64,000 nt of DNA from an uncultured bacterium (lineage in GTDB: Bacteria > Patescibacteriota > Minisyncoccia > Phycocordibacterales > UBA9973). Where the stretch lies: contig CAIJZZ010000060.1 in NCBI GenBank assembly GCA_903825255.1, positions 5,967-69,966 on the forward strand. The letters are read 5' to 3'. The translations under genes were made by a program, and so were the position numbers. Shown here piece by piece: positions 4,485 through 62,636 of the stretch. Under the pieces are notes generated by a model that made no database searches, had not been told where the DNA came from, and saw only the letters and a program-made list of their open reading frames with translations. Each line of letters starts with the position of its first letter. The stretch's first letter is position 1.

Positions 4485-6380
4485 ATGAAATTCAGTTACA
4501 ATTGGTTGCAAAATTATTTTAAAGAAAAATTACCGAGCCCGGAGGAAGTTGCGGAAGGGATTATTTTTCATTCTTTTGAAGTAGATGAAATAGAAAAAGT
4601 GGGGGATGATACTATTTTTGATATAAAAATCTTACCTGACAGGGCACATGATTGTCTTTCACATTGGGGTGTGGCAAAAGAAATCGGAGCGATTTTTAGT
4701 TTGGAAATTTTTTCACCAAATGGCTTTTTTCAGGTCCTCGGTTCTCCTTCGTCTGCTTCGCAGACTCGGCCAGACCATTCAAAAAGCCATATTGGTTCAG
4801 AATTAGAAATTAAAATTGAAGATAAAAAGTGTTTGCGTTATATGGGGAGAATTGTGAGAAATATTAAGATAGGGGAAAGTCCAGAATGGCTCCAAAAAAA
4901 GTTGAATGCGATAGGGCAAAAATCTATAAATAACATTGTCGATGCGACCAATTTTGTGATGTTTGATTTAGGTCAGCCGATTCATGCTTTTGATTTAGAT
5001 AAATTGGCCAGCGAAAAAATAATAATTAGAAATGGAAAGATGGGAGAAAAGATTACCACTCTTGATAAAAAAAATATTGATTTAGATGAATCAATGCTAG
5101 TAATAACAGATGAAAAAGAACCTTTAGCTATTGCTGGGATTAAGGGTGGAAATAAAGCAGAAGTTGATGTAAATACAAAAAATATAATTATAGAGGTAGC
5201 AAATTTTGAAGCTATTAGTACCCGAAGGACTGCTAAGAAAATAAATATTTTAACTGACGCAGTAAAAAGATATGAAAATGAAATTTCACCAGAACTTTGT
5301 GAAATAGTTATAAAAGCAATAACTGATTTAATTTATAATTTAGCAGGTGGAGAAATAGAAGAAATTGTTGATATTTATCCACAAAAACAAGAGCAAAAAA
5401 ATATTATTATTTCTGTTGATTACATAAATAAAAGACTTGGGACTTCTTTTACAAAAAGTGAAATTGAGAGTGTTTGGAAAAAATTAAATTTTGAATATAT
5501 TGAAAAGCAGGATGAATTTGAAATAAAAATACCATTTTTACGTATTGATCTTATCGGGCCACATGATTTAACAGAGGAAGTTGTTAGAATTTTAGGCTAT
5601 GAAAAAATCGAAGAAAAAATACCAGAAGTAAAATATGAAAAAGAAATTAATAAAAATTATTTTCAGACGCTTTCTGTTCGAGAAAAACTTTTAAATGAAG
5701 GCTATAGTGAAGTGATGACTTATGCTTTTAGGGATAAAGGAGAAGTAGAAGTATTAGCTTCAGCTTCCGATAAAAAGTTTTTAAGAACTAATTTAACTGA
5801 TGGGTTAAAAGAAAGTTTGAAGTTGAATCAGCTCAATTTGCCATTTTTAGAAATGAAGGAAATTAAAATTTTTGAAATTGGGACAATATTCAAAAAAGAC
5901 TCAGAAGAAATACATGTGGCATATGGTGATAAAAAAGAAATAAAAGAAATGAGCCTGGAAGATTTTTGTAAGAACGCCGAGCCTAATGCTTTTGTTACGT
6001 CTGAAGCACCGTATGTCTTTTCTGAATGGTCTGGCCGAGCCAAAGGCGAGGAGGACCGAGGACCTGAAGAAAAGATTTACGGCGCGGAAAATAAATTTAA
6101 AATGTGGTCTGTGTATCCATTTATTTCTCGTGATGTTGCCGTGTGGTTAGGAGAAGGAGAAGACCCAGAAAAATTAAAACAAATTTTAATTAAAAATGGC
6201 ACGGAGCTTTTAGTTAAAGAACCTTATCTTTTTGATTCATTTACTAAAGAAGGGAAAACGTCTTATGCTTTCAGGCTTATTTTCCAATCATATGACAGGA
6301 CTCTCACTGATGAAGAGATAAATCCAATTATGGTAAAAATAAAACAAGAAATAGAGAAAAAAGGTTGGCAAATTCGTTAG
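4485..6380 (+). CDS. pheT: phenylalanine--tRNA ligase beta subunit (631 aa, shortened)
   Basis: MKFSYNWLQNYF start typical of PheT. B3/4 motif DATNFVMFDLGQPIHAFD. C-terminal FISRDVAVWL...SYAFRLIFQS domain. Lies directly after pheS. Contains two GC-rich in-frame insertions (see repeats). Confidence 0.9.
   Translation: MKFSYNWLQNYFKEKLPSPEEVAEGIIFHSFEVDEIEKVGDDTIFDIKILPDRAHDCLSHWGVAKEIGAIFSLEIFSPNGFFQVLGSPSSASQTRPDHSKSHIGSELEIKIEDKKCLRYMGRIVRNIKIGESPEWLQKKLNAIGQKSINNIVDATNFVMFDLGQPIHAFDLDKLASEKIIIRNGKMGEKITTLDKKNIDLDESMLVITDEKEPLAIAGIKGGNKAEVDVNTKNIIIEVANFEAISTRRTAKKINILTDAVKRYENEISPELCEIVIKAITDLIYNLAGGEIEEIVDIYPQKQEQKNIIISVDYINKRLGTSFTKSEIESVWKKLNFEYIEKQDEFEIKIPFLRIDLIGPHDLTEEVVRILGYEKIEEKIPEVKYEKEINKNYFQTLSVREKLLNEGYSEVMTYAFRDKGEVEVLASASDKKFLRTNLTDGLKESLKLNQLNLPFLEMKEIKIFEIGTIFKKDSEEIHVAYGDKKEIKEMSLEDFCKNAEPNAFVTSEAPYVFSEWSGRAKGEEDRGPEEKIYGAENKFKMWSVYPFISRDVAVWLGEGEDPEKLKQILIKNGTELLVKEPYLFDSFTKEGKTSYAFRLIFQSYDRTLTDEEINPIMVKIKQEIEKKGWQIR
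4720..4790. repeat. GC-rich element bounded by inverted repeats (long variant), in frame in pheT, forward orientation
   Basis: Perfect 10-nt terminal inverted repeat ATGGCTTTTT / AAAAAGCCAT. Core contains GGTCCTCGGT ... GTCTGC-TTC-GCAGAC hairpin ... GGCCAGACCA. Encodes FFQVLGSPSSASQTRPDHSK. Confidence 0.7.
6016..6075. repeat. GC-rich element bounded by inverted repeats (long variant), in frame in pheT, reverse orientation
   Basis: Termini TCTTTTCT / AGAAAAGA. Its reverse complement reads CAGGTCCTCGGTCCTCC...CTCGGCCAGACCATTCAG, colinear with the 4720-4790 copy. Encodes SEWSGRAKGEEDRGPEEK. Confidence 0.7.
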
Positions 6381-6400: not shown

Positions 6401-7942
6401 ATGTCCCTCAGACATTTTTTCAAGAAGAATCTTCTGACTATTTTTAGCGTTCTTTTTTTAATTCTTTTCTCCTTTGTCTTAAATGCTTATGCTACACCAC
6501 CGGACTCTCCCTTTACTCCTGGCGAAACTTTAAACCCAGCCTGTGCTCCCACAGATACAAATTGTAAAGTTGGCATAAGTTCTTTTTCTGGTTGGGGGCT
6601 CACTGGGAATTCAGGCACTGACCCAGCTACCAACTTTATCGGTACGACGGATGATGTACCGTTAGTTTTTAAAGAAAATAATAAAATTGTGGGAAAAATA
6701 GATGAAAATTCAGAAAATATATTTTTTGGTCGTACACAAAATACTGGTGGTACGGGTTCTTTTAATTCTGCATTTGGATCTGATGCTCTATATAGTATTA
6801 CTACTGGAATAGGTAATACTGCTATTGGTTCAAAATCTCTTTCGTCTAATACAGAAGGAAATAATAATACTGTCGTTGGATTTGGTTCACTTAATCGAAA
6901 TATTGGTGGTGGTAGAAATATTGCCTTAGGTAATAATGCAGGTTATTATGAAACTGGTTCAGACAATTTATATATTGATAATCAATCGAGGGCTGACGAA
7001 GCAGACGGTCGTCTTAAATCACTTATTTATGGAAAGTTCGGTGTTGATGTGTTAGGCCAATTTGTTAATATTAATGGAGCCTTAGGAATTATTGATTCAA
7101 ATGGCAGTTATTATTCTATATTTAGAGGTGGTTCTCAGTTAGAAGAGATTTCTTACACTTTACCTGTGACGCAAGGCGGAATAAATACTTTTCTAGAAAA
7201 TGATGGTTCGGGAGTTTTAACTTGGGCTTCAGGTGGTACAGTGGCTAATGCTTGGGATATTTCTGGGAATGCAGGCACTATAGATGGTTCCAATTTCATT
7301 GGAACAAAAGATGACGTACCACTAACTTTCAAGGTTAATAATGAATTAGCTGGAAGGATAGATAATACATTAGAAAATATATTTTTGGGCTATCAAGCTG
7401 GAAATTTAAACATTACAGGGTCTTACAATGTTGCTATTGGTACACAAGCTTTTAATATTGATACGACAGGAAGTAATAATGTTGCCATAGGTCAAGAGAC
7501 ACTTTATTATAATACTACAGGTAGTTCTAATGTTGGTGTTGGGGAAGGATCTCTTGGCTCAAATAGCACTGGAGATAATAATGTTGCTATAGGCGAAGGA
7601 ACACTTTTTACAAATACAGGCAGTAATAATGTTGCTTTAGGTGGTTCTGCTGGATATTATGAAACCACTTCAAATAATTTATACATTGATAATCAAGAAA
7701 GAGGTAGTGAAGCAGAGGGGAGACTTAAATCATTAATTTATGGAAAATTTGATGCAGATCCAGCTAATCAGTTTGTGACAATTAATGGAAAATTAAATGT
7801 GAGTAATGGAGATGTATATGTGGAAAATAGTGCGAATGGAATAATTTTAAAGTCAGCAACCGATAATCATTGTGCTCGGGTAACTTTAACCGGAGCTTCT
7901 GGATCAGATGCACTTAATTATGCAGATATCACTTGTCCATAA
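6401..7942 (+). CDS. secreted or anchored repeat protein with internal two-fold duplication (adhesin / tail-fibre-like Gly-Asn repeats)
   Basis: N-terminal hydrophobic signal (LLTIFSVLFLILFSFVLNAYA). Two ~180-aa homologous halves. Each half has NFIGT.DDVPL.FK.NN..G.ID...ENIF.G, then degenerate G..N.A.G repeats, then LYIDNQ.R..EA.GRLKSLIYGKF. Confidence 0.6.
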   Translation: MSLRHFFKKNLLTIFSVLFLILFSFVLNAYATPPDSPFTPGETLNPACAPTDTNCKVGISSFSGWGLTGNSGTDPATNFIGTTDDVPLVFKENNKIVGKIDENSENIFFGRTQNTGGTGSFNSAFGSDALYSITTGIGNTAIGSKSLSSNTEGNNNTVVGFGSLNRNIGGGRNIALGNNAGYYETGSDNLYIDNQSRADEADGRLKSLIYGKFGVDVLGQFVNINGALGIIDSNGSYYSIFRGGSQLEEISYTLPVTQGGINTFLENDGSGVLTWASGGTVANAWDISGNAGTIDGSNFIGTKDDVPLTFKVNNELAGRIDNTLENIFLGYQAGNLNITGSYNVAIGTQAFNIDTTGSNNVAIGQETLYYNTTGSSNVGVGEGSLGSNSTGDNNVAIGEGTLFTNTGSNNVALGGSAGYYETTSNNLYIDNQERGSEAEGRLKSLIYGKFDADPANQFVTINGKLNVSNGDVYVENSANGIILKSATDNHCARVTLTGASGSDALNYADITCP

Positions 7943-13095: not shown

Positions 13096-14022
13096 ATGGC
13101 TAATAGGCACCTTTCCAGATCAATAGTTCTTCAGACCCTCTTCGAATGGGATTTCTTGAATGCCTCTAAAAAGGAGGATTTTTGGAGTGACGAACAATTG
13201 AAAGATGCATTAAATCGTAATTTAAAAGAATTTGCCCCTGGACTCGAAGATGATGTTTTTGTGACCTCTCTTATTAAAGAAGTTTTAAAGAAACAAAAAG
13301 TTATTGATGAAATAATTGAAAAAGCGGCGCCTGAGTGGCCGATTGATAAAGTCTCGATAGTAGATAGAAATATTTTACGTATTGGCTTGACGGAGCTTCT
13401 TTTTGGTGATCGGAAACAAGTACCACCGAAAGTGGCGATTAATGAAGCGATAGAATTAGCGAAGACTTTTGGCGGAGAAAATTCTGGAAAATTTATCAAT
13501 GGAGTTTTAGGTGCAGTTTATAAAGAAATAGGAGAACCAGGTAAAGAAGAAACTAGTAAAAAGAAAAAAAATAGTGATGAACCAGTTGATATAAGTAAAC
13601 TACCAATAGAAAAATTCGGTGGTGCTCTAATTTATGCTAGAAAAGATGGTAATCTTTATTTAGGACTTGTGCATGATGTTTTCGGTTACTGGACTCTTTC
13701 AAAAGGACACATTGAAGCTGGGGAGAATGAAAAGGAATCTACAATCAAAAGAATTAAAGAAGAAGTGGGATTAGATATTGTTATAAAAGAAAAACTTGGT
13801 GAAAATGAGTATGTCGCTTCACATCCAGAAAAAGGCAAACTTTTAAAAAAAGTTTCATATTTTTTAGCCGAGAGTGAATATCGTGAATTACAATTAGAAA
13901 GTTCGGGGGGTTTAGATGGGGCAAAATGGTTTCAGCTTTCAGAAATTCCAGAATTGCATATTTACAATGATATTATCCCGATTATTTCTAAAGCGGTTGA
14001 AATTATTTCACATATTAAATAA
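13096..14022 (+). CDS. nusB: NusB antitermination factor fused to a C-terminal Nudix hydrolase domain
   Basis: N-terminal residues ~1-150: RSIVLQTLFEWDF, VDRNILRIGLTELLF, PKVAINEAIELAKTFGGENSGKFINGVLGAVYKE. A Lys-rich linker follows. Then a Nudix-box-like GHIEAGENEKESTIKRIKEEVGL. Confidence 0.8.
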   Translation: MANRHLSRSIVLQTLFEWDFLNASKKEDFWSDEQLKDALNRNLKEFAPGLEDDVFVTSLIKEVLKKQKVIDEIIEKAAPEWPIDKVSIVDRNILRIGLTELLFGDRKQVPPKVAINEAIELAKTFGGENSGKFINGVLGAVYKEIGEPGKEETSKKKKNSDEPVDISKLPIEKFGGALIYARKDGNLYLGLVHDVFGYWTLSKGHIEAGENEKESTIKRIKEEVGLDIVIKEKLGENEYVASHPEKGKLLKKVSYFLAESEYRELQLESSGGLDGAKWFQLSEIPELHIYNDIIPIISKAVEIISHIK

Positions 14023-14030
14023 AAAATATT

Positions 14031-14726
14031 ATGATTCAATTTTCAGATTTTGAGAAAAAAACAAAAATAGTTTTCAAAGATAAGGATTTATTAAAACAAG
14101 CTTTTATTCATCGTTCTTATATAAATGAAAATGGGGCGACTGGATTATCACACAATGAACGTTTAGAATTTTTAGGTGATGCAGTACTAGAATTGATTGT
14201 GACTGATTTTTTATATAAAAAATATCCAAAACACACTGAAGGAGAGTTGACGGCACTTCGCTCGGCACTCGTGAATGCAATTATTATTTCTGAAATTGCT
14301 TCAAAAATTGGCATGAATGAATTTTTACTCTTATCAAGAGGAGAAACAAAAGATACGGGGAAAGCGAGGCAATACATCTTAGCGAATACTTATGAAGCCT
14401 ACGTCGGAGCAGTTTACTTAGATCAAGGTTATGATGTAGCCAATAGTTTTATTACTAAATCACTTTTACCAAAAACTGAAGAAATCGTCGCAAAAAAACT
14501 TTGGCGGGATGCGAAAAGTCTAGTACAAGAAAAAGCACAAGAATTTGTTAATTTTACCCCAGCTTATAAGGTTTTAAGTGAATCAGGGCCAGACCATGAT
14601 AAGCATTTTAATATTGGAATATTTTTTGGACCTGATTTAATTGCTGAAGGAAAAGGTAAATCCAAACAAGAAGCAGAACAAAAGGCGGCTGAAGCAGCAT
14701 TAAAAATAAAAAATTGGCTAGATTAA
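14031..14726 (+). CDS. rnc: ribonuclease III
   Basis: ERLEFLGDAVLE signature. C-terminal dsRBD (GPDHDKHF...GKGKSKQEAEQKAAEAAL). Confidence 0.93.
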   Translation: MIQFSDFEKKTKIVFKDKDLLKQAFIHRSYINENGATGLSHNERLEFLGDAVLELIVTDFLYKKYPKHTEGELTALRSALVNAIIISEIASKIGMNEFLLLSRGETKDTGKARQYILANTYEAYVGAVYLDQGYDVANSFITKSLLPKTEEIVAKKLWRDAKSLVQEKAQEFVNFTPAYKVLSESGPDHDKHFNIGIFFGPDLIAEGKGKSKQEAEQKAAEAALKIKNWLD

Positions 14727-30107: not shown

Positions 30108-30193
30108 AAAAGGACGAATATAAAAGTTTTCTGGTAAGCAAGACGAAGCCAGTGCTTACAGGCGAAAACCTTTATATTCGTCCTTTTTGTATT
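30108..30193 (+). terminator. unusually long hairpin (24-bp stem, 23/24 paired) plus T-tract after the KH gene
   Basis: AAAAGGACGAATATAAAAGTTTTC (30108-31) pairs with GAAAACCTTTATATTCGTCCTTTT (30164-87). The 32-nt loop has its own GTAAGCA/TGCTTAC stem. Followed by TTTTTGT. Confidence 0.5.
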
Positions 30194-30213: not shown

Positions 30214-30930
30214 ATGCGTTTTCATATTATTACAATTTTTCCAGACATCTTTGATTCATATTTAAATGAGTCTATTCTTGGGCGGGCGATAAAAGAAAAG
30301 CATGTTTCTGTTAAATTTTATAATCCACGGGATTACGTAAAAGCCCAAAATAAGAACAATTACAAACCCGTAGATGATCGGCCTTATGGCGGAGGCCCTG
30401 GGATGGTGATGCGACCAGAACCTATCTTGAAAGCAGTAGAAAAGGCTATTTCGACGATTAGCAAAATTTCTTCGGGTCCTCGGTCTGGGGCCAGACCAGC
30501 TCAGAAATTTTCTAATCGTCTCAATAAAAATAAAATTCAAATTATTAATTTTATTCCAAGTGCTGAGAAGTTTACAACCATTGAGGCAAAAAAAATTTCT
30601 AAAAAATATACCGATATTATTTTAATTTGTGGAAGATATGAAGGGATAGATGCACGAGTAGATAAAATTTTAAAAACTAAAAAATATTCTATCGGAGATT
30701 ATGTTTTGACAGGTGGGGAATTACCGGCGATGGTATTGATTGATTGTATTGCCCGTCAAATTCCTGGGGTACTCGGCAAATATGAATCTCTAGAAGAAGA
30801 GCGGGTATCTTCTAGTGAAGTTTACACTCGTCCTGAAATACTTAAATATAATAATAAAAATTATAGAGTTCCGAAAGTCTTACTCTCTGGAAATCATGCA
30901 GAAGTAGAAAAATGGAAGAAAACTCATTAA
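30214..30930 (+). CDS. trmD: tRNA (guanine37-N1)-methyltransferase
   Basis: PYGGGPGMVM, ICGRYEGIDARV, IGDYVLTGGELPAMVLID, LLSGNHAEVEKWK. Carries an in-frame 49-bp repeat element. Confidence 0.93.
   Translation: MRFHIITIFPDIFDSYLNESILGRAIKEKHVSVKFYNPRDYVKAQNKNNYKPVDDRPYGGGPGMVMRPEPILKAVEKAISTISKISSGPRSGARPAQKFSNRLNKNKIQIINFIPSAEKFTTIEAKKISKKYTDIILICGRYEGIDARVDKILKTKKYSIGDYVLTGGELPAMVLIDCIARQIPGVLGKYESLEEERVSSSEVYTRPEILKYNNKNYRVPKVLLSGNHAEVEKWKKTH
30463..30511. repeat. 49-bp GC-rich palindromic mini-element, in frame in trmD
   Basis: Perfect 9-nt terminal inverted repeat AAAATTTCT / AGAAATTTT. Core GGGTCCTCGGTCTGG-GG-CCAGACCAGC. 43/49 identical to the reverse complement of 62241-62289. Confidence 0.8.
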
Positions 30931-30959: not shown

Positions 30960-30990
30960 TTGTAATTTACTCGGGGGGGGGGGTTATAAT
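30960..30990 (+). promoter_or_regulatory. candidate promoter TTGTAA-19-TATAAT with a G11 homopolymer filling the spacer
   Basis: G run at 30973-30983 (11 nt), 1 nt upstream of TATAAT (30985-90). TTGTAA at 30960-65. Lies upstream of the surface-protein gene starting at 31031. Confidence 0.45.
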
Positions 30991-51190: not shown

Positions 51191-54100
51191 ATGGGGGATA
51201 TTTTACCAAAAAAAACAATAGATCAAAAAGAAGGACTTATTCCTGAAAATATTGAGGTGAATGATAGTGTAAACAAGGAGAATAAGATTATAGAAAATTC
51301 AGAAAATTCAGAAAATTCAGAAAAAATTCTTGAAAAAATTGAGCCTCTTTTAGTTGAAGTAGATCAAATAAACTCTGAAATTGAAGAAAAAAGTGACGGC
51401 CTTTTGGAAAGTATAAAAAATCCTATTTTAGTTGAGAAAGAAAATAGTATTTTAGGAGAGCTTTATCAAAAAGGTGAAAATTTTCTCAAATTAATATCTA
51501 GGCAATTAGCAAGCTATCCTAAAGGAGTTGCAGAGTCTTTCAAAGATAAATATATAAGTAAAAAATCTAATCGTTTATATAATCGTCTTTATAGTAACAA
51601 AGCGATAAGTGAATATACAAATTCACATTCTCGAAAAGAAGAAGCGATCCGTTCTTTTGATTATATATATAAAAGTTCTTTACCACTTTTGAATACTATT
51701 GAGAATGGTTTTTGGGGAAATTCCAAAAATAAGTCTGAAACTATTTCATATGTAAATTCTTCATTATCAATAATTAGCAGACAAGGTATTTCACTAGAAA
51801 AGTATGATGAAGTTTTTAATATTCTTAAGATTTATGAAAACAGCCGAACACTATCTGATGAAAATAAAAATCAACAGAATACCTTTTCAAATATTACTAC
51901 AGAGCTAAGTAAGCATTTATATAGCAAAGAAAACGCTACTGAAGCTGATGAAATTTCTAAAGTATGTAGAAATGATCCATATTTAATTATTGATTATTTA
52001 AAAAATAATTATATTGATGAAAATAAACTTAATCAACAAAAAAATTCAAATTTTTTAGAAGAGCAAGTGGATAAAATAATCGAAGAACATACTGAAAATA
52101 GTCACTGCAATCAGTTTGTTTTAAGTTCTTTTGAAAAAGTTTTAAAAGCGAATCCTGAAAAATATGGATTGGATATTAAAAATAGGGAATTTATTTTTGA
52201 AAATTTTAAAATTGATAATTTTGAAAATTCCTCTAGTAATTATTTAATAAATAATAGTCCCTTTTTTAAAAGGGAGCTTGATAATTTAACAGAAGAAGAT
52301 CTTGATAAATTAATAGGATCTTATACTAGTTATGGTATAAAAGAGGGAAAAGTGCAACTTTTATTATCTTCTACGAATCTACAAGAAAAAGATTTTAAAA
52401 ATATTTTTAATAAAGTTAAAGGTTTTTCTGAAGAAGAAAATGATTATTCAAAAGAAAAATTACTAGAATTATTTAAAAATAACCCAATAATACCATTTTT
52501 AAAATATAAAGAATTTAACTTAAAAACAGAAGACCGAATTGATTTTTTTGAAAAAATTATGGGATTTATGGATAATCCTTTTTTATTTTTAACAAAAATT
52601 CTTTCTGAATTTAACCTCCTTTCTAAGGAAATTCCCGAAGAAAAGTTTGATGAGCTTTTTCAAAAACTTCTTGAAAAATCAATGACTGGCGAAATTAAAG
52701 AAATTAGAGCATTACATGCCTTACTCCCAGCATACGATGTTCCTGCTAAATATAAAGAAATGATTAATAAAGCCTTTTCAGAAGAATATTCTGAAGGAGG
52801 CGGTGCCACTAGAATTAGTAGGATTTTTAGTGAAGAAAATAATTCTCTACAACTTTCTAAGCAGGAAAAATGGCTCAAAGGCAATGCCGTGCTTGCGCCC
52901 AATTTAGAAATTGGGTTTTATAATTCTGGTGACATGAATACTCTTAGGCACTTTTTTTTCGATGTGATAGAAGGAAAAAGACAATCTATAGATAAGGATT
53001 TGCTAATTAAAAAATATGCCGAAAGAATTTACCAAGTTGAGCCAGAAGAAATCATTGATCTTTTTATTATTAGGAAAAAGCTTCCCATGTCTTATTTAGA
53101 TGCATTTTCTGCTAAAATCCAGGATCATGATACAGAAAAGTTGTTTTTACAGTTAGAGGACTGTCTTCGCTTGAATCAAATATCTCAAGCAGAATATAAA
53201 AAAGTATTAATTAGCTTAATAAATAATGCCTATTATGTCGTTGCTGAAAAGTCGCTGGATCGTTCCAAAGAAATTCTTAATCAAGATGAAATAAAAGAGT
53301 TATCTTTAGGTTTTATAAAAAATATAGTCAAACAAGTTGCAAATAAGGATAATTACAGTCGTCCTGATGCTAATAGTCTTCGTAGAATTATTGAATCAAA
53401 ATTTTATGATTCACCTACTATAACTCAAGAAGACAAAAAAATTTTTACCAACAAGCTCTTTGAGGAACTTATTAGCTATAAAAATTTAAATAATGAAATA
53501 TTAGAAATAGTTGATCAAAATAAGGATTTATTTAAAACAGCCTTTGACGATGATAAAAAGAGAGATGATTTTGTCGGTAAATTATTAACAAGCAATGATC
53601 ATCGAGCAATTAGTAATTTGATTGATAGTTATTTATCTGAAATTAAAACTGAAAAAGAATTTAAAAATCCAATTAATCTATCAATCGATGAAGAAAAATT
53701 CAAATCATTATTTAAACACGGTTTATCTTTAGATGATTTAGAAATAGACAATGCTTTAATTGTTAATTTTAAAGCTCTTTCTAAGGAAGAACAAGGGATT
53801 GTAATAAAAAATTTATTGGCTAAGGAAGATATCTTAAGAAATTCTAATGGAGATACAATACGAAATTTTTGTTCTAATATGGTTAATGTTACCCAAAACG
53901 ATAAAATAAATGAAGGAGAAAATAGGATTATCTCAGAAAATGATGCCCAAAATATTTTTTCTAAAATATTTTTTAATAAATCCATAAATCCACAAGTCTT
54001 TAATGATTTAATTTATCATAAGAAAGGATTTTTGACTGAGAATAAAAATATTTTAAATGAATATATTTCAGCTATTGAATTAAAAGGGAGTAGTAATAAT

Positions 54101-56434
54101 TGTTTATCAGCTTTAGAAGAACTAAAATCTACGGAAAAACCAGTTCTTTCAGTGGAGCAAGTAAAGAGTCTTTCTATCGAATTACTAAAAAATAGAAACT
54201 TAGATAAGAATCTTTATCAAATGTATCTAGATTCAACTCCAGATAATTTACAGTTTTATTTAGATCAGGAAATTTTTGATCAAAACATATATAGTATAAG
54301 TATCAACGGCAATGATATGACTACCTCTATTCTTGATTTTTTGGAATTAGAAAAAAAAGTTAAAAATGAAGGTAAGAATGTTATTACTTTAAATGAAAGT
54401 CAAGAAGAGTCGATTGTAGAAAAAATATTAAATTATAATGGAATAAATAGTTCAAATTTTGAAAAACTTTATGATATTGATCAAGAATTATTTTCTGATT
54501 CATTAAAAAATGCATTAAATAAACAAAAAATAGGTGAAGATCCGCTTATGAGTCTTATTAATACCAAAGAAGAAATTTCAAAAGTTTTTGCTTCTGAAAT
54601 CATCGCATATTATTTTAATTATAGAAATAATCGAAAAAATGTATTTGATTTAATTTGTGATAAATATTCATATAGTCCCGAGTTCTTGAAAAAAATAAAG
54701 GAGTATGTTAATAATTTAGGAAACAAAGTAGATCGTTCAGTTTTTAAATCAAAACTTTTACAGAAAGACTTACTTTCTGGAGAAGAACTCAAGGCTTTTT
54801 ATGAAGAAATACGCTCCGAACCGGATTTACAATCCCAAGTGCTTCTTTCAGCTGAAGTGTTGGGTTCCTTGTCTTATACTGGTGACAAAGAAAAAATAGA
54901 TAAAATTTTTGGACCAGAAGAAGTAGAAACTAAAAAAAATCTAGAATTTATTTCTTCTTTTGTTAAAAAATATCCTTTACAAAACAAAGGTAGGACTATT
55001 GCTGTAATGCTTTTTTCTAAAGAATATTTACCTGACAGAAGTATTGGAGAAATAGTAGAAAAAGTGGCTGGTAGACTTTCTAAATATGAAAGAGTTTTAG
55101 AACAATATCAATATAAAGGTATTCCAGCTGGCTTAAAAGCTTCTGTAGGCCTTGAATATGAGATTACCCACTCAACAGCAAATGGTTATAAGGAGTTAAC
55201 TAATCGTGATTTAAAAACAGATATTGTGAGACTAAGTGAAGCAGCTCATATAGGCAATGGAGCAGATGCTGTGCATGAAATAGCTACTCGACCTACTGAT
55301 GAACCATATTTACTTTTCTTAGAAATGCAATTGTTAAATGATTTGGAATATATTGATTTGAATTTTGAACGCTCACCCGAATATCAAAAAGGGGCTAGGG
55401 GCTATCATTTGACTATTGGCGGAGAAACGGGTCTTTCTGTAAATGCAAATACTAATTTTCTTCAGAATTCTATTTTAAGTGCTGGTTGGGGCGGAATATA
55501 TGCTGGTGAAGTCGGCAAAAGGGTTTCTGGTGGACGAGGAGTGACTTTAAGAGGTAGAAGTCCAAATGACGGTCACAATGTTAAGGTTTTTGATAATCCA
55601 ACTTATTCGGTTGAATTAAGGTCTTTATCTATTGATAAAATAGAACCACTACAGCGAGCTATTTCAACTGCTTATAATGGAGCTATCGCTATTCAAGCCT
55701 TAGAAAAATATACAGATTGTTCTTCTGATACGATTAATGATTTTTATGAATCAAATTCTGTAAAAAGTAGTGAAAAGGAATTTATGGAAAAACTTAAAGA
55801 ATCTTCTAAATTAAAAGATGGTTATGATTCTGATCCAAAAAATATAAAAATTATTTATGCTTGGGCAGAGTTAGTGGCTGAAACTAAAGAGGCACTCGAA
55901 TATCATAATAATGAATTTTTAACTGGAGAAACACTCGGCTATTTAAAAAAAGATGGGGTATGGGTAGACTCCGAAGATTTCGGAGGAAATTATAATAGAA
56001 AACGTTTTGACTCTGTAGTTTCTTCAATTGATTCGACTTTATCAGTAGAAGAATATGTAAATTCAACTAAAATTGATTTTAATAAATTATTTTCTAGTTT
56101 TGATGTGGATCTAGCTGATAGTTTAACAAAGGTAAATAATTTATATTTAAAACCCGGTAGTAGAGAATCTGGCGATGAAAAAAATAAGAAAGTAAAATTA
56201 AGTGGTGACCAAGCAAATACAATCTCAATGTTGGAAGTTACAAAGTTTAATAATGAAAATCTTGAACATCGAGATGAGGCTGCCTATCTCAAGGGTACCG
56301 TATTTGATACTTTAGGTGAACGTCGAGAAGGATATTATTATGTTCAAGGGGGAAGTGAAAAAATGATTACCCATGCTTGTCAGATAGCTCTTTTGAATTT
56401 TAATAAAAAAATGGAAGAAATTTTAAAGAATTAA
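51191..56434 (+). CDS. giant hypothetical protein (1747 aa) with C-terminal glutamine-synthetase-like amidoligase signature
   Basis: Uninterrupted 5.2-kb ORF. About 1300 aa of Asn/Lys/Glu/Ile-rich, mostly helical-looking sequence. Residues ~1310-1500 contain VGLEYEI...GADAVHEIATRP...RGYHLTIGG...SVELRSL. Confidence 0.6.
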   Translation: MGDILPKKTIDQKEGLIPENIEVNDSVNKENKIIENSENSENSEKILEKIEPLLVEVDQINSEIEEKSDGLLESIKNPILVEKENSILGELYQKGENFLKLISRQLASYPKGVAESFKDKYISKKSNRLYNRLYSNKAISEYTNSHSRKEEAIRSFDYIYKSSLPLLNTIENGFWGNSKNKSETISYVNSSLSIISRQGISLEKYDEVFNILKIYENSRTLSDENKNQQNTFSNITTELSKHLYSKENATEADEISKVCRNDPYLIIDYLKNNYIDENKLNQQKNSNFLEEQVDKIIEEHTENSHCNQFVLSSFEKVLKANPEKYGLDIKNREFIFENFKIDNFENSSSNYLINNSPFFKRELDNLTEEDLDKLIGSYTSYGIKEGKVQLLLSSTNLQEKDFKNIFNKVKGFSEEENDYSKEKLLELFKNNPIIPFLKYKEFNLKTEDRIDFFEKIMGFMDNPFLFLTKILSEFNLLSKEIPEEKFDELFQKLLEKSMTGEIKEIRALHALLPAYDVPAKYKEMINKAFSEEYSEGGGATRISRIFSEENNSLQLSKQEKWLKGNAVLAPNLEIGFYNSGDMNTLRHFFFDVIEGKRQSIDKDLLIKKYAERIYQVEPEEIIDLFIIRKKLPMSYLDAFSAKIQDHDTEKLFLQLEDCLRLNQISQAEYKKVLISLINNAYYVVAEKSLDRSKEILNQDEIKELSLGFIKNIVKQVANKDNYSRPDANSLRRIIESKFYDSPTITQEDKKIFTNKLFEELISYKNLNNEILEIVDQNKDLFKTAFDDDKKRDDFVGKLLTSNDHRAISNLIDSYLSEIKTEKEFKNPINLSIDEEKFKSLFKHGLSLDDLEIDNALIVNFKALSKEEQGIVIKNLLAKEDILRNSNGDTIRNFCSNMVNVTQNDKINEGENRIISENDAQNIFSKIFFNKSINPQVFNDLIYHKKGFLTENKNILNEYISAIELKGSSNNCLSALEELKSTEKPVLSVEQVKSLSIELLKNRNLDKNLYQMYLDSTPDNLQFYLDQEIFDQNIYSISINGNDMTTSILDFLELEKKVKNEGKNVITLNESQEESIVEKILNYNGINSSNFEKLYDIDQELFSDSLKNALNKQKIGEDPLMSLINTKEEISKVFASEIIAYYFNYRNNRKNVFDLICDKYSYSPEFLKKIKEYVNNLGNKVDRSVFKSKLLQKDLLSGEELKAFYEEIRSEPDLQSQVLLSAEVLGSLSYTGDKEKIDKIFGPEEVETKKNLEFISSFVKKYPLQNKGRTIAVMLFSKEYLPDRSIGEIVEKVAGRLSKYERVLEQYQYKGIPAGLKASVGLEYEITHSTANGYKELTNRDLKTDIVRLSEAAHIGNGADAVHEIATRPTDEPYLLFLEMQLLNDLEYIDLNFERSPEYQKGARGYHLTIGGETGLSVNANTNFLQNSILSAGWGGIYAGEVGKRVSGGRGVTLRGRSPNDGHNVKVFDNPTYSVELRSLSIDKIEPLQRAISTAYNGAIAIQALEKYTDCSSDTINDFYESNSVKSSEKEFMEKLKESSKLKDGYDSDPKNIKIIYAWAELVAETKEALEYHNNEFLTGETLGYLKKDGVWVDSEDFGGNYNRKRFDSVVSSIDSTLSVEEYVNSTKIDFNKLFSSFDVDLADSLTKVNNLYLKPGSRESGDEKNKKVKLSGDQANTISMLEVTKFNNENLEHRDEAAYLKGTVFDTLGERREGYYYVQGGSEKMITHACQIALLNFNKKMEEILKN
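51293..51329. repeat. in-frame 9-bp tandem repeat (GAAAATTCA)x3 plus a degenerate 4th unit
   Basis: Encodes ENSENSENSEK near the N-terminus of the giant ORF. Confidence 0.8.
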
Positions 56435-56449
56435 TATCAAAATGAAATA

Positions 56450-57757
56450 ATGCAATTTAAAATTGAGAAAAAGTTAAAAGGAAGTTTAGGGAGAGTGGGG
56501 AGGTTAGAAACTCCGCATGGGGTTATTTTGACACCGGCTTTTGTGGCGGTGGGGACGAAAGCGACCATCAAATCTTTAAATCCAGAACAAGTGCGTGATG
56601 CTGGTTCACAAGTGGTGCTTGGCAATACTTATCATTTATTTTTACAGCCAGGTGATGAGATAGTGCGTGGTGCTGGTGGTATTGGAAAATTTATGAATTG
56701 GACAGGGCCCACGATGACCGACTCTGGCGGTTTCCAAGTTTTTTCACTCGGAGCGGCTTATGGTAAAGATATTTCCAAAATTACTAAAATTACAGATCCG
56801 TCACTTTTGATTCCTGAGCGTTTTGATGACAGTGATGCACCACGACTTGCGAAAATCGGAGAGGATGGAGTTTCTTTTAAATCACATTTAGATGGGAAGA
56901 TACATTACATTACTCCGGAGAAATCAATTCAGATTCAGCACAATTTAGGCGCAGATATAATTTTTGCTTTTGATGAATGTACGAGCCCGACAGAGGATTT
57001 AAAATATCAAGAAGAAGCACTTAATAGGACTCATAAATGGGCAGAGAGAAGTTTAAAGGAACATCTTAATTTGGAAAATTCAAAACAGCTGCTTTCTCAC
57101 GGCTCGCCCCACAACCTGACAATGGTTAACGAACGTAATATTGCGCAGGCCGAAGAAAGCACTGTTTTAAATTTTTCACAGGCATTATTTGGTATAGTGC
57201 AAGGAGGGCGCGAAGAAGGTTTACGAAAGAAATCTGCAAAAATAATTTCTGAAATGCAGGTAGATGGCAAAAGTTTTGATGGTTTTGGAATTGGTGGATC
57301 TTTTGCTAAAGAGGATATGTCGACAGCTGTAAAGTGGGTGAATGAAATTTTACCAGAAGAAAAACCTCGACACTTACTTGGTATTGGCGAGCCAGAAGAT
57401 TTATTTATGGGAATAGAAAATGGTGTAGACCTTTTTGATTGTGTGCTTCCGACACGATTAGGAAGAAATGGTACGATTTACACGAAGCTCGGTAAAATAA
57501 TTATGACTAATAAAAAATATCGGGATGATTTTACTCCGATTGAAAAAGACTGCGTTTGTTACACTTGCACACATTATACTCGCGCTTATATAGCACATCT
57601 TTTCCACGGCAAAGAAATGTTGGCTGGTACTTTGGCATCACTACACAATTTATTTTTCATAAATAATTTAGTTTCAAAAATTCGTCAGTCTATTATCGAT
57701 GATGGTTTTTTTGAATTTAAAGAAAATTTTTTAAAGGATTATCAAAAAAGTGTATAA
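56450..57757 (+). CDS. tgt: queuine tRNA-ribosyltransferase
   Basis: TPAFVAVGT, LGNTYHL, TDSGGFQVFSL, IIFAFDEC, ALFGIVQGG, LLGIGEPEDL. Zn site CVCYTCTHYTRAYIAHL. Carries a ~100-bp in-frame insertion. Confidence 0.93.
   Translation: MQFKIEKKLKGSLGRVGRLETPHGVILTPAFVAVGTKATIKSLNPEQVRDAGSQVVLGNTYHLFLQPGDEIVRGAGGIGKFMNWTGPTMTDSGGFQVFSLGAAYGKDISKITKITDPSLLIPERFDDSDAPRLAKIGEDGVSFKSHLDGKIHYITPEKSIQIQHNLGADIIFAFDECTSPTEDLKYQEEALNRTHKWAERSLKEHLNLENSKQLLSHGSPHNLTMVNERNIAQAEESTVLNFSQALFGIVQGGREEGLRKKSAKIISEMQVDGKSFDGFGIGGSFAKEDMSTAVKWVNEILPEEKPRHLLGIGEPEDLFMGIENGVDLFDCVLPTRLGRNGTIYTKLGKIIMTNKKYRDDFTPIEKDCVCYTCTHYTRAYIAHLFHGKEMLAGTLASLHNLFFINNLVSKIRQSIIDDGFFEFKENFLKDYQKSV
57074..57176. repeat. ~100-bp element bounded by inverted repeats, in frame in tgt (second family)
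   Basis: Left arm GAAAATTCAAAACAGCTGCTTTCT. Reverse complement of the right arm is GAAAAATTTAAAACAGTGCTTTCT (~23-nt imperfect terminal inverted repeat). GC-rich interior CACGGCTCGCCCCACAACCTG...GCGCAGGCCG. Confidence 0.65.
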
Positions 57758-59836: not shown

Positions 59837-62212
59837 ATGGATAAGAGTAAAATTTTGAACAAAAAAGAATTAAGTCAAATTAAAAGTATTAGGAATCGGG
59901 AAGGGGAAGTTATTACTTTTAATTTAAATAAAATTATTTATGCAATATATAAAGCTTTTATTGCGACTGGTGAAGGTACTGAGAAAGAAGCAGAGAGCAT
60001 TGCTAAGAATATTTTTTATAAATTGATTCATTTAAAAGAAGAAAACAAAGGAAAAAAGTTTGTACCGAGTGTGGAAATGATTCAAGACTTGGTAGAAGCT
60101 GAGCTTATGGGTCTTAAGTTTTATCAAACAGCTAAATCTTATATCTTATATCGTTCCAATCGAGCTAAATTAAGACAAGAAGTAGGAGTAGTCCCTCCAG
60201 AAAGTAAAAAAATCTTCGATGAATCAAGTTCTTTTTTTGTTAGCTCTTACGAAGAATTTATTTTTTTCCGAACATACTCAAAATGGCAAGATAGTTTAGG
60301 TAGAAGAGAGACTTGGACAGAAACCATTGACCGTTTTATGGCTTACATGAAAGAAAATCTTGGTAAAAAATTATCTGATAAAGATTATGTATTACTCCGT
60401 GAATCAATTTTAAAACAAGAAGTTTGTCCTTCAATGCGTTTACTTTGGTCAGCCGGCGAAGCTTGTGAGAAATCAAATGTGTGGGCTTACAATTGTTCTT
60501 TTGTGGCACCTTCTTGCTGGCAAGATTTGGGAGAAATAATGTATATCTTGATGTGTGGAGCCGGATTAGGATTTTCAGTTGAATCAGAGACTGTACAAAA
60601 ATTTCCTCAAATAAAAAGACAAAATGGAAAAAAACTTTCTACACATACTGTTGAAGATAGTAAGGAAGGTTGGGCAGATGCTTTTGTGCTTGCTTGTAAA
60701 ACTTGGGCAGATGGTTATGATATTAATTTTGATTATAGTGAAGTTCGTCCAGCTGGTTCACGCTTAAAGACTGCTGGTGGTAGAGCTTCAGGACCTCAAC
60801 CATTAATCGATTTAATTAATTTTGCAAAAATTAAAATTTTAGCTCGACAAGCAAAACGTTTAACTAATATAGATCTACATGACATTATTTGTCAGATTGG
60901 TCTGATCGTCGTAGCTGGGGGTGTGCGTCGCAGTGCCCTCATTTCTCTTTCTGATATTGATGATGAATCAATGAGAAAATCAAAACAAGGTCAATTCTGG
61001 ATCGACAATGGTCAACGTTCTATGGCGAATAATTCAGCTGTCTATAATCAAAAACCTTCAGCTGGAGAATTTTTAAATGAATGGATTGAACTTATCAAAT
61101 CAGGTACAGGTGAACGTGGAATATTTAACCGTGGAGGTTTAATGACTCAATTGCCAAAACGTCGTATTGATAATTGGAAGAAAAATGGAATTATTGATGA
61201 TCAAAATGTAATTGTGGGTCTTCCTGGATCAAATCCTTGTGGAGAGATTACACTTCGTTCTAAACAATTTTGTAATTTGACTTCTATCGTAGTACGTCCC
61301 GATGACACTGTGGCTGATTTAAAAAAGAAAGTTAGAATTTCTACTATTTTAGGTACTTACCAAGCAACTCTAACTCATTTTAATTATCTCTCGAAAGAAT
61401 GGAAAGAAAATTGTGATGATGAAGCACTTCTCGGAGTTTCGATTACTGGTTATTATGACAATAAAACTATTCGAAATGATAAGGTTCTAAATGAATTACG
61501 CGAAGAAGCTATTAAAACAAACAAAGAATATGCTAAAAAGTTTGGTATTAATCATTCTACTTGTATCACTACAGTGAAGCCTCATGGTAACTCAGGTCAG
61601 CTTTTGTATGTCGGATCAGGAATGCATCCATGGTATGCAAAATATTTTATTAGGCGTGTCCGTATCGCTACCAATGATCCTCTTTTCCAAATGATGAAGG
61701 ATCAAGGAGTACCTTCAAAAGCGGAAGTCGGTTATTCTACTGCGAACTCAACTGTGGCAGTACTCGAATTTCCTATTAAAGCACCCGATGGCGCTATCAC
61801 TAAGGATGAAGTAACTGCTCTTGATTTATTACACGAATGGAAAAGATTAAAAATAAATTATATTGAACACAATCCCTCAGTTACTATTTATGTCGGACCA
61901 AATGAATGGATTGAAGTAGCAAATTTTGTCTATGAGAATTGGGATATCGTCGGTGGGTTGTCATTTTTACCTCGTTCAGAACATGTTTATCAATTAGCTC
62001 CATATGAAGAAATTTCGAAAGAGGAATACGAAAAAAGATCAAAAGAAATAAAGCACATTGATTTTTCTAAATTGATGTATTATGAACAAGAAGATAACAC
62101 TGTCGGAGCTAAGGAATTCGCTTGTGTTTCAGGAGTTTGTTCAATTGACGATATAATGGCCGAAGAAGCACAAAAAGAAAAGTTGAAAGATTCACCAGAC
62201 ACTGAAAATTAA
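59837..62212 (+). CDS. nrdJ: class II (adenosylcobalamin-dependent) ribonucleotide reductase with N-terminal ATP-cone
   Basis: ATP-cone IRNREGEVITFNLNKIIYAIYKAF. Active-site SNPCGEITL. C-terminal redox pair CVSGVC. No separate small subunit gene is adjacent. Confidence 0.8.
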   Translation: MDKSKILNKKELSQIKSIRNREGEVITFNLNKIIYAIYKAFIATGEGTEKEAESIAKNIFYKLIHLKEENKGKKFVPSVEMIQDLVEAELMGLKFYQTAKSYILYRSNRAKLRQEVGVVPPESKKIFDESSSFFVSSYEEFIFFRTYSKWQDSLGRRETWTETIDRFMAYMKENLGKKLSDKDYVLLRESILKQEVCPSMRLLWSAGEACEKSNVWAYNCSFVAPSCWQDLGEIMYILMCGAGLGFSVESETVQKFPQIKRQNGKKLSTHTVEDSKEGWADAFVLACKTWADGYDINFDYSEVRPAGSRLKTAGGRASGPQPLIDLINFAKIKILARQAKRLTNIDLHDIICQIGLIVVAGGVRRSALISLSDIDDESMRKSKQGQFWIDNGQRSMANNSAVYNQKPSAGEFLNEWIELIKSGTGERGIFNRGGLMTQLPKRRIDNWKKNGIIDDQNVIVGLPGSNPCGEITLRSKQFCNLTSIVVRPDDTVADLKKKVRISTILGTYQATLTHFNYLSKEWKENCDDEALLGVSITGYYDNKTIRNDKVLNELREEAIKTNKEYAKKFGINHSTCITTVKPHGNSGQLLYVGSGMHPWYAKYFIRRVRIATNDPLFQMMKDQGVPSKAEVGYSTANSTVAVLEFPIKAPDGAITKDEVTALDLLHEWKRLKINYIEHNPSVTIYVGPNEWIEVANFVYENWDIVGGLSFLPRSEHVYQLAPYEEISKEEYEKRSKEIKHIDFSKLMYYEQEDNTVGAKEFACVSGVCSIDDIMAEEAQKEKLKDSPDTEN

Positions 62213-62240
62213 AATTAATAAAAATAAAAAACAAAAATAT

Positions 62241-62289
62241 AAAATTTTCAAGCTGGTCTGGCTCCAGACCGAGGACCCGAGAAAATTTT
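62241..62289. repeat. 49-bp GC-rich palindromic mini-element, intergenic copy (reverse orientation relative to the trmD copy)
   Basis: Perfect terminal inverted repeat AAAATTTTC / GAAAATTTT. Core CTGGTCTGG-CT-CCAGACCGAGGACCC. 43/49 identical to the reverse complement of 30463-30511. Followed by a T-rich run. Confidence 0.8.
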
Positions 62290-62335
62290 ATATTTTTTTA
62301 ATTGCTTTTTTAATATTTTGTTTTATAATCAAATT

Positions 62336-62626
62336 AGCCTTATATTGGATAACTGCTCCGCTTACAGCGGGGAGGAAAGTCCGAACACACAGTCTTGACG
62401 TAAGTCTAGACAAACGTAGCGGGTAATGCCCGTCGGGAGCAATCCTAGAGTTGCGAACAGTGACGAACCGATTTAGTTCGGGTGAAACGGCAAAATACTT
62501 ACGCGTGTGCAAGATCGTGTCCTGATGTAAATCAGGAAGAATCGCTTGAGCCTGTGAGTAATTACAGGCCTAGATAAATAGTTGTCACCCTTCGGGGTAC
62601 AGAATTCGGCTTATAGATATAAGGCT
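62336..62626 (+). ncRNA. rnpB: RNase P RNA (bacterial type A, compact)
   Basis: P4 halves GGGGAGGAAAGTCCGAACAC and ACAGAATTCGGCTTAT. GCTTGAGCC...GGCCTAGATAAAT block. P1 pairing AGCCTTATAT (62336-45) with ATATAAGGCT (62617-26). ORF 62288..62512 (-) is therefore spurious. Confidence 0.93.
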
Positions 62627-62636
62627 AAAAAATGAA

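Follow-up and report, generated by a model that had tools for sequence, protein, structure and literature searches.

The stretch analysed here, referred to below as the window, comprises 64,000 nucleotides (nt) of contig CAIJZZ010000060.1 (assembly GCA_903825255.1) from an uncultured bacterium of the Patescibacteriota, that is, of the candidate phyla radiation (CPR). It carries four copies of a short palindrome with a GC-rich core: one in frame in trmD, two in frame in pheT and one between genes, upstream of the RNase P RNA. The original prediction, made from the letters alone, placed a 49-nt palindromic element at 30463-30511 within trmD. The letters and coordinates of this 49-mer are exact, but its boundaries are not those of the palindrome, which is 68 nt long. 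The host genes, the copies and the parts of the first copy are as follows:

4485-6380, + strand: pheT, 631 amino acids (aa), with the Pfam domains B3_4, B5 and FDX-ACB; carries copies 3 and 4
4715-4796, + strand: copy 3, long form, in frame in pheT site A, with boxes at 4733-4741 and 4768-4776, inner hairpin GTCTGC-TTC-GCAGAC and arms ACCAAATGGCTTTTT / AAAAAGCCATATTGGT; would encode about NGFFQVLGSPSSASQTRPDHSKSH
6007-6084, - strand: copy 4, long form, antisense yet in frame, pheT site B; would encode about PYVFSEWSGRAKGEEDRGPEEKIYG
30214-30930, + strand: trmD, 238 aa (Pfam PF01746, E = 1.4e-40)
30453-30520, + strand: copy 1, short form, a 68-nt palindrome in frame in trmD; would encode about SKISSGPRSGARPAQKFSNRL
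30453-30461: outer left arm of copy 1, GACGATTAG, host-derived
30462: extra C, an unpaired base in the left arm of copy 1
30463-30471: inner left arm of copy 1
30472-30502: core of copy 1, with boxes GGTCCTCGG and GCCAGACC
30503-30511: inner right arm of copy 1
30512-30520: outer right arm of copy 1, CTAATCGTC, reverse-complementary to the outer left arm
62233-62297, - strand: copy 2, short form, intergenic, with perfect 17-nt arms at 62233-62249 and 62281-62297

The 9-nt inverted repeat first described in copy 1, AAAATTTCT at 30463-30471 with AGAAATTTT at 30503-30511, does pair perfectly, but the true repeat is longer, with 30453-30471 pairing with 30503-30520 apart from the one extra C at 30462. 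This repeat had been taken for the end of the element; it turned out to be mostly a locus-specific stem, the upstream half of which is host coding sequence (see below). The central hairpin is present as described (GGTCTGG at 30482-30488, then GG, then CCAGACC at 30491-30497), and the contrast in composition is marked, the 31-nt centre having 71% GC compared with 33% both in the rest of trmD and in the window. When compared with shuffled sequence, copy 1 folds with z = -4.5 as RNA and z = -6.4 as DNA. The reading frame of trmD remains open across it, the open reading frame (ORF) giving ...ISTISKISSGPRSGARPAQKFSNRL..., and its read-through would yield peptides such as SSGPRSGARPAQK.

A second site, at 62241-62289, had also been noticed, and its reverse complement indeed agrees with the 49-mer at 43 of 49 positions; the total for the window is, however, four copies rather than two. 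The core of copy 2 differs from that of copy 1 by a single base, and the window has two occurrences of the 23-nt core GGTCCTCGGTCTGGNGCCAGACC, whereas 100 shuffles give an expectation of 0.00. Copy 2 lies between the stop codon of an unannotated 791-aa ORF (59837-62212) and the RNase P RNA (62337-62629), 40 nt upstream of the latter. The pheT copies were found by a repeat scan; they have the boxes GGTCCTCGG and GGCCAGACC in common and a centre longer than that of the short form, and copy 4 lies immediately upstream of the conserved FKMWSVYPF motif of PheT. The box GGCCAGACC alone occurs four times in the window as against 0.02 expected; its occurrence at 14587 was rejected as a further copy, the partner box being absent. 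The reverse-strand intergenic copy carries AGCCAGACC instead of GGCCAGACC.

The element extends far beyond the window. An exact-pattern scan (TGGTCTGGC, 4-34 nt, CCGAGGACCNGAR) of one genome for each of 185,579 species returned at least 118 loci, and at least about 106 of these are true copies additional to the four in the window, so the notion of two copies only fails. All of the true copies are in AT-rich Patescibacteria assemblies, labelled Nomurabacteria, Paceibacterota, Parcubacteria or Patescibacteria and, in some cases, Saccharibacteria; the other pattern matches among those listed are chance occurrences in genomes of 53-72% GC. Several genomes contribute at least two copies among the matches listed. 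The named TrmD, PheT and Tgt homologues likewise belong to Candidatus Paceibacterota, Nomurabacteria, Parcubacteria or Minisyncoccia (CPR/Patescibacteria). In the viral contig collection, the core pattern gave one match only, a chance one in a contig of 61-65% GC. At the gathering score, the window matches nothing in Rfam other than RNase P RNA and one tRNA, there is no Rfam family for the element, and a search with two copies at E values up to 10 gave nothing meaningful. No description of such elements in CPR bacteria, Patescibacteria or Parcubacteria was found in the open-access literature, as had been supposed from the outset.

These copies follow a common plan, in which CTCRGGTCCTCGG, a variable GC hairpin and GCCAGACCA stand between long inverted arms specific to each locus. 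Read 5' to 3', the order is locus arm, often a T-run, left box, variable centre, right box, often an A-run and, finally, the reverse complement of the arm. The left box is (C/T)TC(A/G)GGTCCTCGG, and the right box is GCCAGACCA followed by TTC or GCTC. The centre is itself a small GC hairpin of at least four types (e.g., CCGGG-TCCCTAT-CCCGG, ACGAGGGAGGACGAGG and CTCGCGATTACGCTCG), which is reduced in the short form to just TCTGGG. With a core of 28-55 nt and arms of 8-29 nt, the whole palindrome measures 63-107 nt, and the core forms the tip of a stem of 15-30 bp that has a different sequence at every site. Within subfamilies, inner inverted repeats of 8-13 nt are common (e.g., TAGCAAARTTTTC, ATACTTTTT and ATGCTTTTT), while the outer 6-20 nt are unique to the locus; several copies (the Tgt and PheT-B groups) have neither a T-run nor a common inner repeat, and hence the core is all that every copy shares. 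In many copies of the G type, the 5' arm contains one additional base, at a constant distance from the core. Variant cores were seen in loci L100 (- strand, near 5949), L122 (- strand, near 7436), L097 and L174; one is a very short form, CTCAGGTCCTCGGAAAAAATCCCCAGACCATTCG, and others are longer, with a different centre after the left box (GGTCGGCCACAC...). These variants suggest further subfamilies missed by the exact pattern.

We consider that this is a non-autonomous, selfish, intragenic palindromic element, the family of which has spread through Candidatus Paceibacterota/Nomurabacteria, a clade in which no such element is known to have been described, that it is translated as a disordered Gly/Pro/Ser/Arg loop, and that its stem would be made or kept by fold-back synthesis, the host flank copied in inverted form being its distinguishing feature. 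We would give this reading a probability of roughly 70%. The findings that carry it are a dispersed conserved core, presence/absence polymorphism, in-frame read-through, locus-specific arms that co-vary, an upstream arm that is native to the host gene in TrmD and Tgt, and the lack of direct target duplications beyond chance. They also bear out the idea, put forward for trmD in the original prediction, of a mobile element, small, palindromic and GC-rich, that has entered the gene in frame in the manner of the Rickettsia palindromic elements (RPEs), since both a multi-copy family and polymorphic TrmD sites were found.

The coding context was read from 110 copies drawn from the matches listed, a sample in which copies at orthologous sites are non-independent, so that the counts overstate the sample size. 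Long ORFs contain 82 of these copies (75%), 61 in the sense and 21 in the antisense orientation, with the frame open across the whole palindrome in every case. The other 28 are intergenic, usually begin 0-27 nt after a stop codon and in no case split a gene; a split-gene reading of these 28 was rejected, as the upstream ORFs stop at their own codon before the palindrome. The sense share is 74%, compared with 61-63% predicted from stop-free frames alone. The core is GC-rich, and it therefore has few stop codons and encodes flexible loops of Gly, Pro, Ser, Arg and Ala. This pattern of open frames is that expected of a translated segment rather than of a spliced or bypassed one, and, on this evidence, the inserts appear to be translated.

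An alternative is that the segment is removed or skipped before it reaches the protein, either as a mini-intron excised at the long stem or by ribosomal bypass, as in the byp elements of yeast mitochondria. The long perfect stem would indeed bring exon ends together, and byps are reportedly GC-rich mobile inserts in an AT-rich genome, as Lang et al. are said to have described in 2014. Removal or bypass would, however, require neither a frame nor an orientation, whereas all 82 intragenic copies keep the frame, no gene is split and the orientation bias is roughly what the number of stop-free frames would give. We regard this alternative as very improbable.

One and the same core may be read as SSGPR..ARP, QVLGSPGP..RPDH, LRSSV.., NGLAG..RGPE or WSG..RGPE, or may be intergenic; at least five combinations of frame and orientation are used. 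Since one core is read in many frames, its conservation lies at the level of the nucleotides and not of the peptide. This agrees with the earlier argument that the DNA shared by the two sites exceeds any constraint from the TrmD protein, the same DNA being found in the frames and on the strands of other genes as well as between genes. It also leaves hardly any credence for a lineage-specific functional TrmD loop that is conserved as protein and resembles the intergenic copy incidentally. The SSGPR..ARP peptide is admittedly present in many TrmD orthologues, but the same DNA occurs in other frames, on the other strand, in other genes and in intergenic positions; moreover, a second frame is used within TrmD itself (SFSQVLDPKAQTIRKR), many orthologues have no insert, and the model of the loop has low confidence.

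That model, an AlphaFold prediction for the TrmD of the window (mean predicted local distance difference test, pLDDT, 75), gives values below 50 for residues 87-99, which lie between a helix (68-86) and a strand (108-113). TrmD structures from the PDB align on either side of the insert. The original prediction made this loop about 17 aa longer than in E. coli; the extra length is real, but the figure is about 23 aa relative to the Haemophilus structures (over the region between aligned residues 79 and 133) and 18-20 aa relative to empty orthologues of the same class. The insert would form a disordered loop of about 19 aa between helix and strand, as the low confidence of the model in this segment suggests.

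In different species, the copies are concentrated at corresponding positions of the same housekeeping proteins, and both orientations often occur at one site. The proteins concerned are PheT and UvrD (two sites each), TrmD, Tgt, TsaD, GatA, MnmA, IscS, KsgA, a Dus-like protein and PolA, where the site is in a linker. At the TrmD site, 120 orthologues revealed five states. The site may be empty (AISKIK-NKKKILIINF, in proteins of 216-222 aa), and here orthologues without the DNA element are also without the peptide; it may be filled by this family, in the short or long form; it may hold the same core in another frame, which gives the SFSQVLDPKAQTIRKR reading already mentioned; it may retain a remnant, KFSS or KFSSG; or it may contain unrelated GC-rich inserts, namely TPSRKRATPQEG, SKDIARHDSAES, NYELRI and NPRRPKGSGSRS. 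On a neighbour-joining tree from which the insert region was left out, these five states are interspersed. Tgt orthologues show the same range of site states, and in L206, the closest relative contig, which is syntenic with the window, both pheT sites are empty.

The loops used by this family are also used by others. In the alignments of TrmD, PheT and Tgt (P0001-P0361), at least five unrelated GC-rich insert families occur at the same loops, examples being TPSRKRATPQEG (in TrmD and Tgt), GSLS..ALPLGSSACETP, PPLL.KEG..SPHP.PLL.KERG and SKDIARHDSAES, while the NYELRI insert is a 7-nt tandem repeat of ATTACGA. The window itself contains such a case. Its tgt ORF (56450-57757) has a different in-frame hairpin of 105 nt at 57073-57177 (+ strand), with 24-nt arms, GGAAAATTCAAAACAGCTGCTTTCT / AGAAAGCACTGTTTTAAATTTTTC, and a 56-nt core, and this hairpin occupies the exact Tgt loop that is used by the GGTCCTCGG..GCCAGACC family in other genomes. 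Its LLSHGSHSNLNVVNESNIAYAEEST-like peptide recurs in many Tgt orthologues, which points to a separate insert family with the same design of mirrored arms. The presence of unrelated families at the same loops implies that loop remodelling by hairpins seems to be general in the clade.

The origin of the arms is central to the interpretation. The two arms of a copy pair with a median score of 16, as against 6 when the arms are drawn from different loci; 87% of the own-arm scores exceed the 99th percentile of this control. At the TrmD site, in seven copies, 9 of the 16 stem pairs have changed on both sides, and 87.5% of the cells are paired, compared with 34-56% in slid controls. Alignment with empty alleles indicates which arm came first. 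The empty site of L207 reads AISTI-K-NKNHK and the filled site of the window AISTI-SKISSGPRSGARPAQKFSNRL-NKNK, from which it follows that the S-T-I codons are native and that CTAATCGTC is their reverse complement. Similarly, the empty site of L202 reads SVAR-NKK and the filled site of L142 reads SVAR-KFSSGPRSGARPLEKPTS-N (KFSS..PTS), where ACGAGCAAC is the reverse complement of GTTGCTCGT. In Tgt, the residues ENQKQ are present without any core (P0274) and beside unrelated inserts; where this family occupies Tgt, ENQKQ has its exact mirror in (L/F)VSDF, the downstream arm (perfect over 21 nt in L194), and antisense cores have the same arms on either side. As judged from these alignments, the gene-upstream arm in TrmD and Tgt belongs to the native coding sequence, and the downstream arm repeats this upstream arm in inverted form. 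The arms were not copied from elsewhere within 8 kb, since 7 of 91 arms had an extra match at this distance compared with 6.8% of controls.

One mechanism that creates stems of this sort is template switching during replication, which produces perfect stems, multi-base compensatory changes, stem extension and hairpin-tip inversion (Monttinen and Loytynoja 2022, PMC8794818). We infer a fold-back (template-switch) origin or upkeep of the stem; template switching fits the co-varying arms, their length of 8-29 nt and the two orientations at one site. In the sequence of events that we propose, the core would fold back on itself through GGTC/GACC and the distal hairpin, and a nascent DNA strand that has just copied the core would prime on its own upstream sequence. 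Snap-back or template-switch synthesis would then produce the mirror arm, after which the strand would return to its template; at a later stage, the stem could be repaired or extended, or its tip inverted, by the same process. The core might reach a new site by a template switch to another copy or through an enzyme acting in trans. Among intragenic insertions, those that survive would be those that keep the frame, lack stops and lie in permissive surface loops, while hairpin-mediated deletion would remove elements and leave remnants such as KFSS(G). A step further, and tentative, is the proposal that the family propagates without any transposase, the core being copied to new sites and the stem built by replication template switching, with an inverted target duplication as the signature; the odds are against it.

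A more classical explanation would be a miniature transposable element with inverted repeats (MITE) moved by a transposase encoded elsewhere (of the IS200/IS605 type, a RAYT-like HUH enzyme or a CPR enzyme), in which case the locus arms would result from extension of the palindrome after insertion. The inner inverted repeats of 8-13 nt in subfamilies and the single-base bulge at a fixed distance from the core are in keeping with this, as is the strict conservation of two boxes around a freely varying centre, which resembles a protein recognition site; moreover, the same sites are hit repeatedly in both orientations. Direct target-site duplication is, however, missing: the best flanking direct repeat has a mean of 3.0 nt compared with 2.6 nt in shuffled pairs, hence none beyond chance. 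In addition, some copies (the Tgt and PheT-B groups) share nothing outside the core, and the GTAG or CGTC tag that marks the REP superfamilies is absent (PMC3733652). A Pfam search of 25 of the 48 ORFs in the window found housekeeping domains only, with no transposase, reverse transcriptase or RAYT domain, and a search of 1.43 Mb of loci revealed no ORF with a half-element on each side. Taken together, these points make a classical MITE rather unlikely.

Another possibility is that the palindrome is a structured nucleic-acid element maintained by selection, such as a small RNA, a DNA cruciform that binds a protein or an mRNA hairpin through which RNase III sets the half-life of the message. 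The strong covariation of the stem, the folding z-scores of -4.3 to -6.4 and the conservation of the core over a class-level clade are all compatible with such a function, and RNase III is encoded on the syntenic relative contig L206. Against it stand the occurrence of either orientation relative to transcription at one site, the location inside unrelated housekeeping ORFs as well as between genes, the presence or absence among close orthologues with no compensating feature and the use of the same loops by unrelated hairpin families. Nor did the two copies searched match any Rfam family, even at E = 10, and terminator architecture is lacking: on both strands, the T-run precedes and the A-run follows the hairpin, the reverse of the order in a terminator. 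Intergenic copy 2 was considered as an intrinsic terminator and rejected, since a scan found none and its T-run precedes the hairpin. On balance, a selected structure of this kind is quite improbable.

A different hairpin, in the gap between the KH-domain gene and trmD at 30108-30187 (+ strand), was also examined as a family-like insert. It has 80 nt, 24-nt arms that are 96% complementary and z = -7.8 as DNA, and it is followed by TTTTTGTATTTT. Because a T-run follows it, and because L207 has kept it, arms included, upstream of trmD (91% identity across 66 nt), it was rejected as an insert; its appearance is that of a conserved terminator or attenuator rather than of a mobile copy. The inverted repeat at 5683-5782 and the NDK gene product, which shows two Pfam stretches, were likewise inspected and are not hairpin inserts.

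Several points weigh against our reading of the family as a translated selfish element with a fold-back stem. The case for translation comes from frame statistics, to which the non-independence of the copies applies, and mobility is read from polymorphism, no movement step having been observed. A near-isogenic pair of filled and empty alleles was not found, the sole TrmD partner in the 90% cluster (94% identical) having the same insert. Pairing in the stem could be kept instead by selection on RNA or DNA structure. The native upstream arm is documented for two genes; in the case of pheT site A, no alignment of either arm with the empty allele is possible, and the insertion seems to have taken the place of 13 native residues instead of interrupting them. 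For TsaD, a comparison with what we take to be the E. coli sequence suggested that both arms are extra. The repeated use of sites at the level of the codon, the inner repeats of subfamilies and the recurrent single bulge would also fit a sequence- or structure-specific enzyme, and the domain scan for such an enzyme covered the 25 of 48 ORFs mentioned above. Indeed, for the arrival of the core, the shared inner repeats and the fixed bulge favour an enzyme over template switching.

Among known systems, RPEs are the closest in behaviour, being in frame, translated and intragenic. They are small palindromic repeats in an AT-rich, reduced genome, are inserted in frame in housekeeping genes, where the extra peptides fit protein folding, and fall into several families (PMC10969869). 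When the two are set side by side by description, each has a palindrome in frame in protein genes that is read through. RPEs, however, measure about 100-150 bp, belong to an alphaproteobacterial genus and have a conserved peptide per family, whereas the element described here has a core of 28-55 nt within a palindrome of 63-107 nt, uses several frames and both strands, has Patescibacteria as hosts and does not carry most of its stem, which is copied from the host flank.

MITEs such as Correia/NEMIS, ERIC and the Coxiella QMITE1 and QMITE2 are also short, non-autonomous, hairpin-forming and multi-copy, and they sometimes overlap ORFs (PMC10969869; PMC5896051). They differ in having conserved terminal inverted repeats and direct target duplications (2-11 nt in the QMITEs) and in being mostly intergenic; the CPR element has no direct duplication, its arms are locus-specific, and 75% of the copies listed are intragenic. 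REPs and REPINs are multi-copy, GC-rich imperfect palindromes (20-40 nt) that form hairpins in single strands (PMC3116915; PMC3733652). Unlike the CPR element, REPs are extragenic, are tagged with GTAG or CGTC and are accompanied by a RAYT gene; the CPR element has the ends (C/T)TC(A/G)GG and CCA(TTC/GCTC), without a tag, and no Y1 transposase domain was found in the 25 ORFs of the 48 in the window that were scanned. The mirror copies of the flank, the multi-base compensatory changes, the extension of the stem and the inversion of its tip are all explained by template switching, which is, however, a general mutational process that is not described as propagating a conserved dispersed core. Finally, the GC clusters and byps of yeast mitochondria are GC-rich palindromic mini-inserts in an AT-rich compact genome, with copies in protein genes, many subfamilies and frequent gain and loss. 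They are organellar and unrelated in sequence, and byps, which are skipped by the ribosome, need no frame, whereas the CPR element is always in frame when it is in a gene.

Some other features of the window were recorded in passing:

6401-7942, + strand: 513-aa ORF with repeats at a period of 51 nt (17 aa), an internal duplication of 137 nt (6912-7048 / 7623-7759) and no Pfam match; probably a repetitive surface protein
13096-14022, + strand: a single ORF with a NusB domain (residues 7-143) and a NUDIX domain (197-286), an unusual fusion
30973-30983: a run of 11 G about 40 nt 3' of the trmD stop codon (genome GC, 33%), which could be a slippage-prone tract or an assembly artefact
51191-56434, + strand: 1,747-aa ORF with no Pfam match at E values up to 1e-5
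62337-62629, + strand: RNase P RNA, bacterial class A (118 bits), a reduced version that has 293 nt while spanning all 367 model positions

The genomes of CPR bacteria are tiny, and nearly all of their genes are essential. This family and a number of unrelated, GC-rich hairpin families have nevertheless inserted 15-30 codons, time and again, in TrmD, PheT, Tgt, PolA, TsaD, GatA, MnmA, IscS, KsgA and UvrD. Such inserts inflate the apparent divergence of proteins and disturb alignments, and they may explain part of the protein insertions of CPR bacteria that have been without explanation. The recurrent sites constitute a natural map of the loops in essential enzymes that tolerate insertion, and the element provides a simple DNA marker of the clade in metagenomes. 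A mirrored host sequence beside a conserved core departs from the usual rules of transposons, namely, conserved ends and a direct duplication, and it either provides a concrete case in which propagation by template switching can be tested or points to a structure-specific enzyme in these uncultured bacteria. Should propagation without a transposase prove true, this would be a new class of hairpin mobile element, one in which unrelated cores would use the same route, and which would continually be remodelling the surface loops of essential proteins across the CPR.

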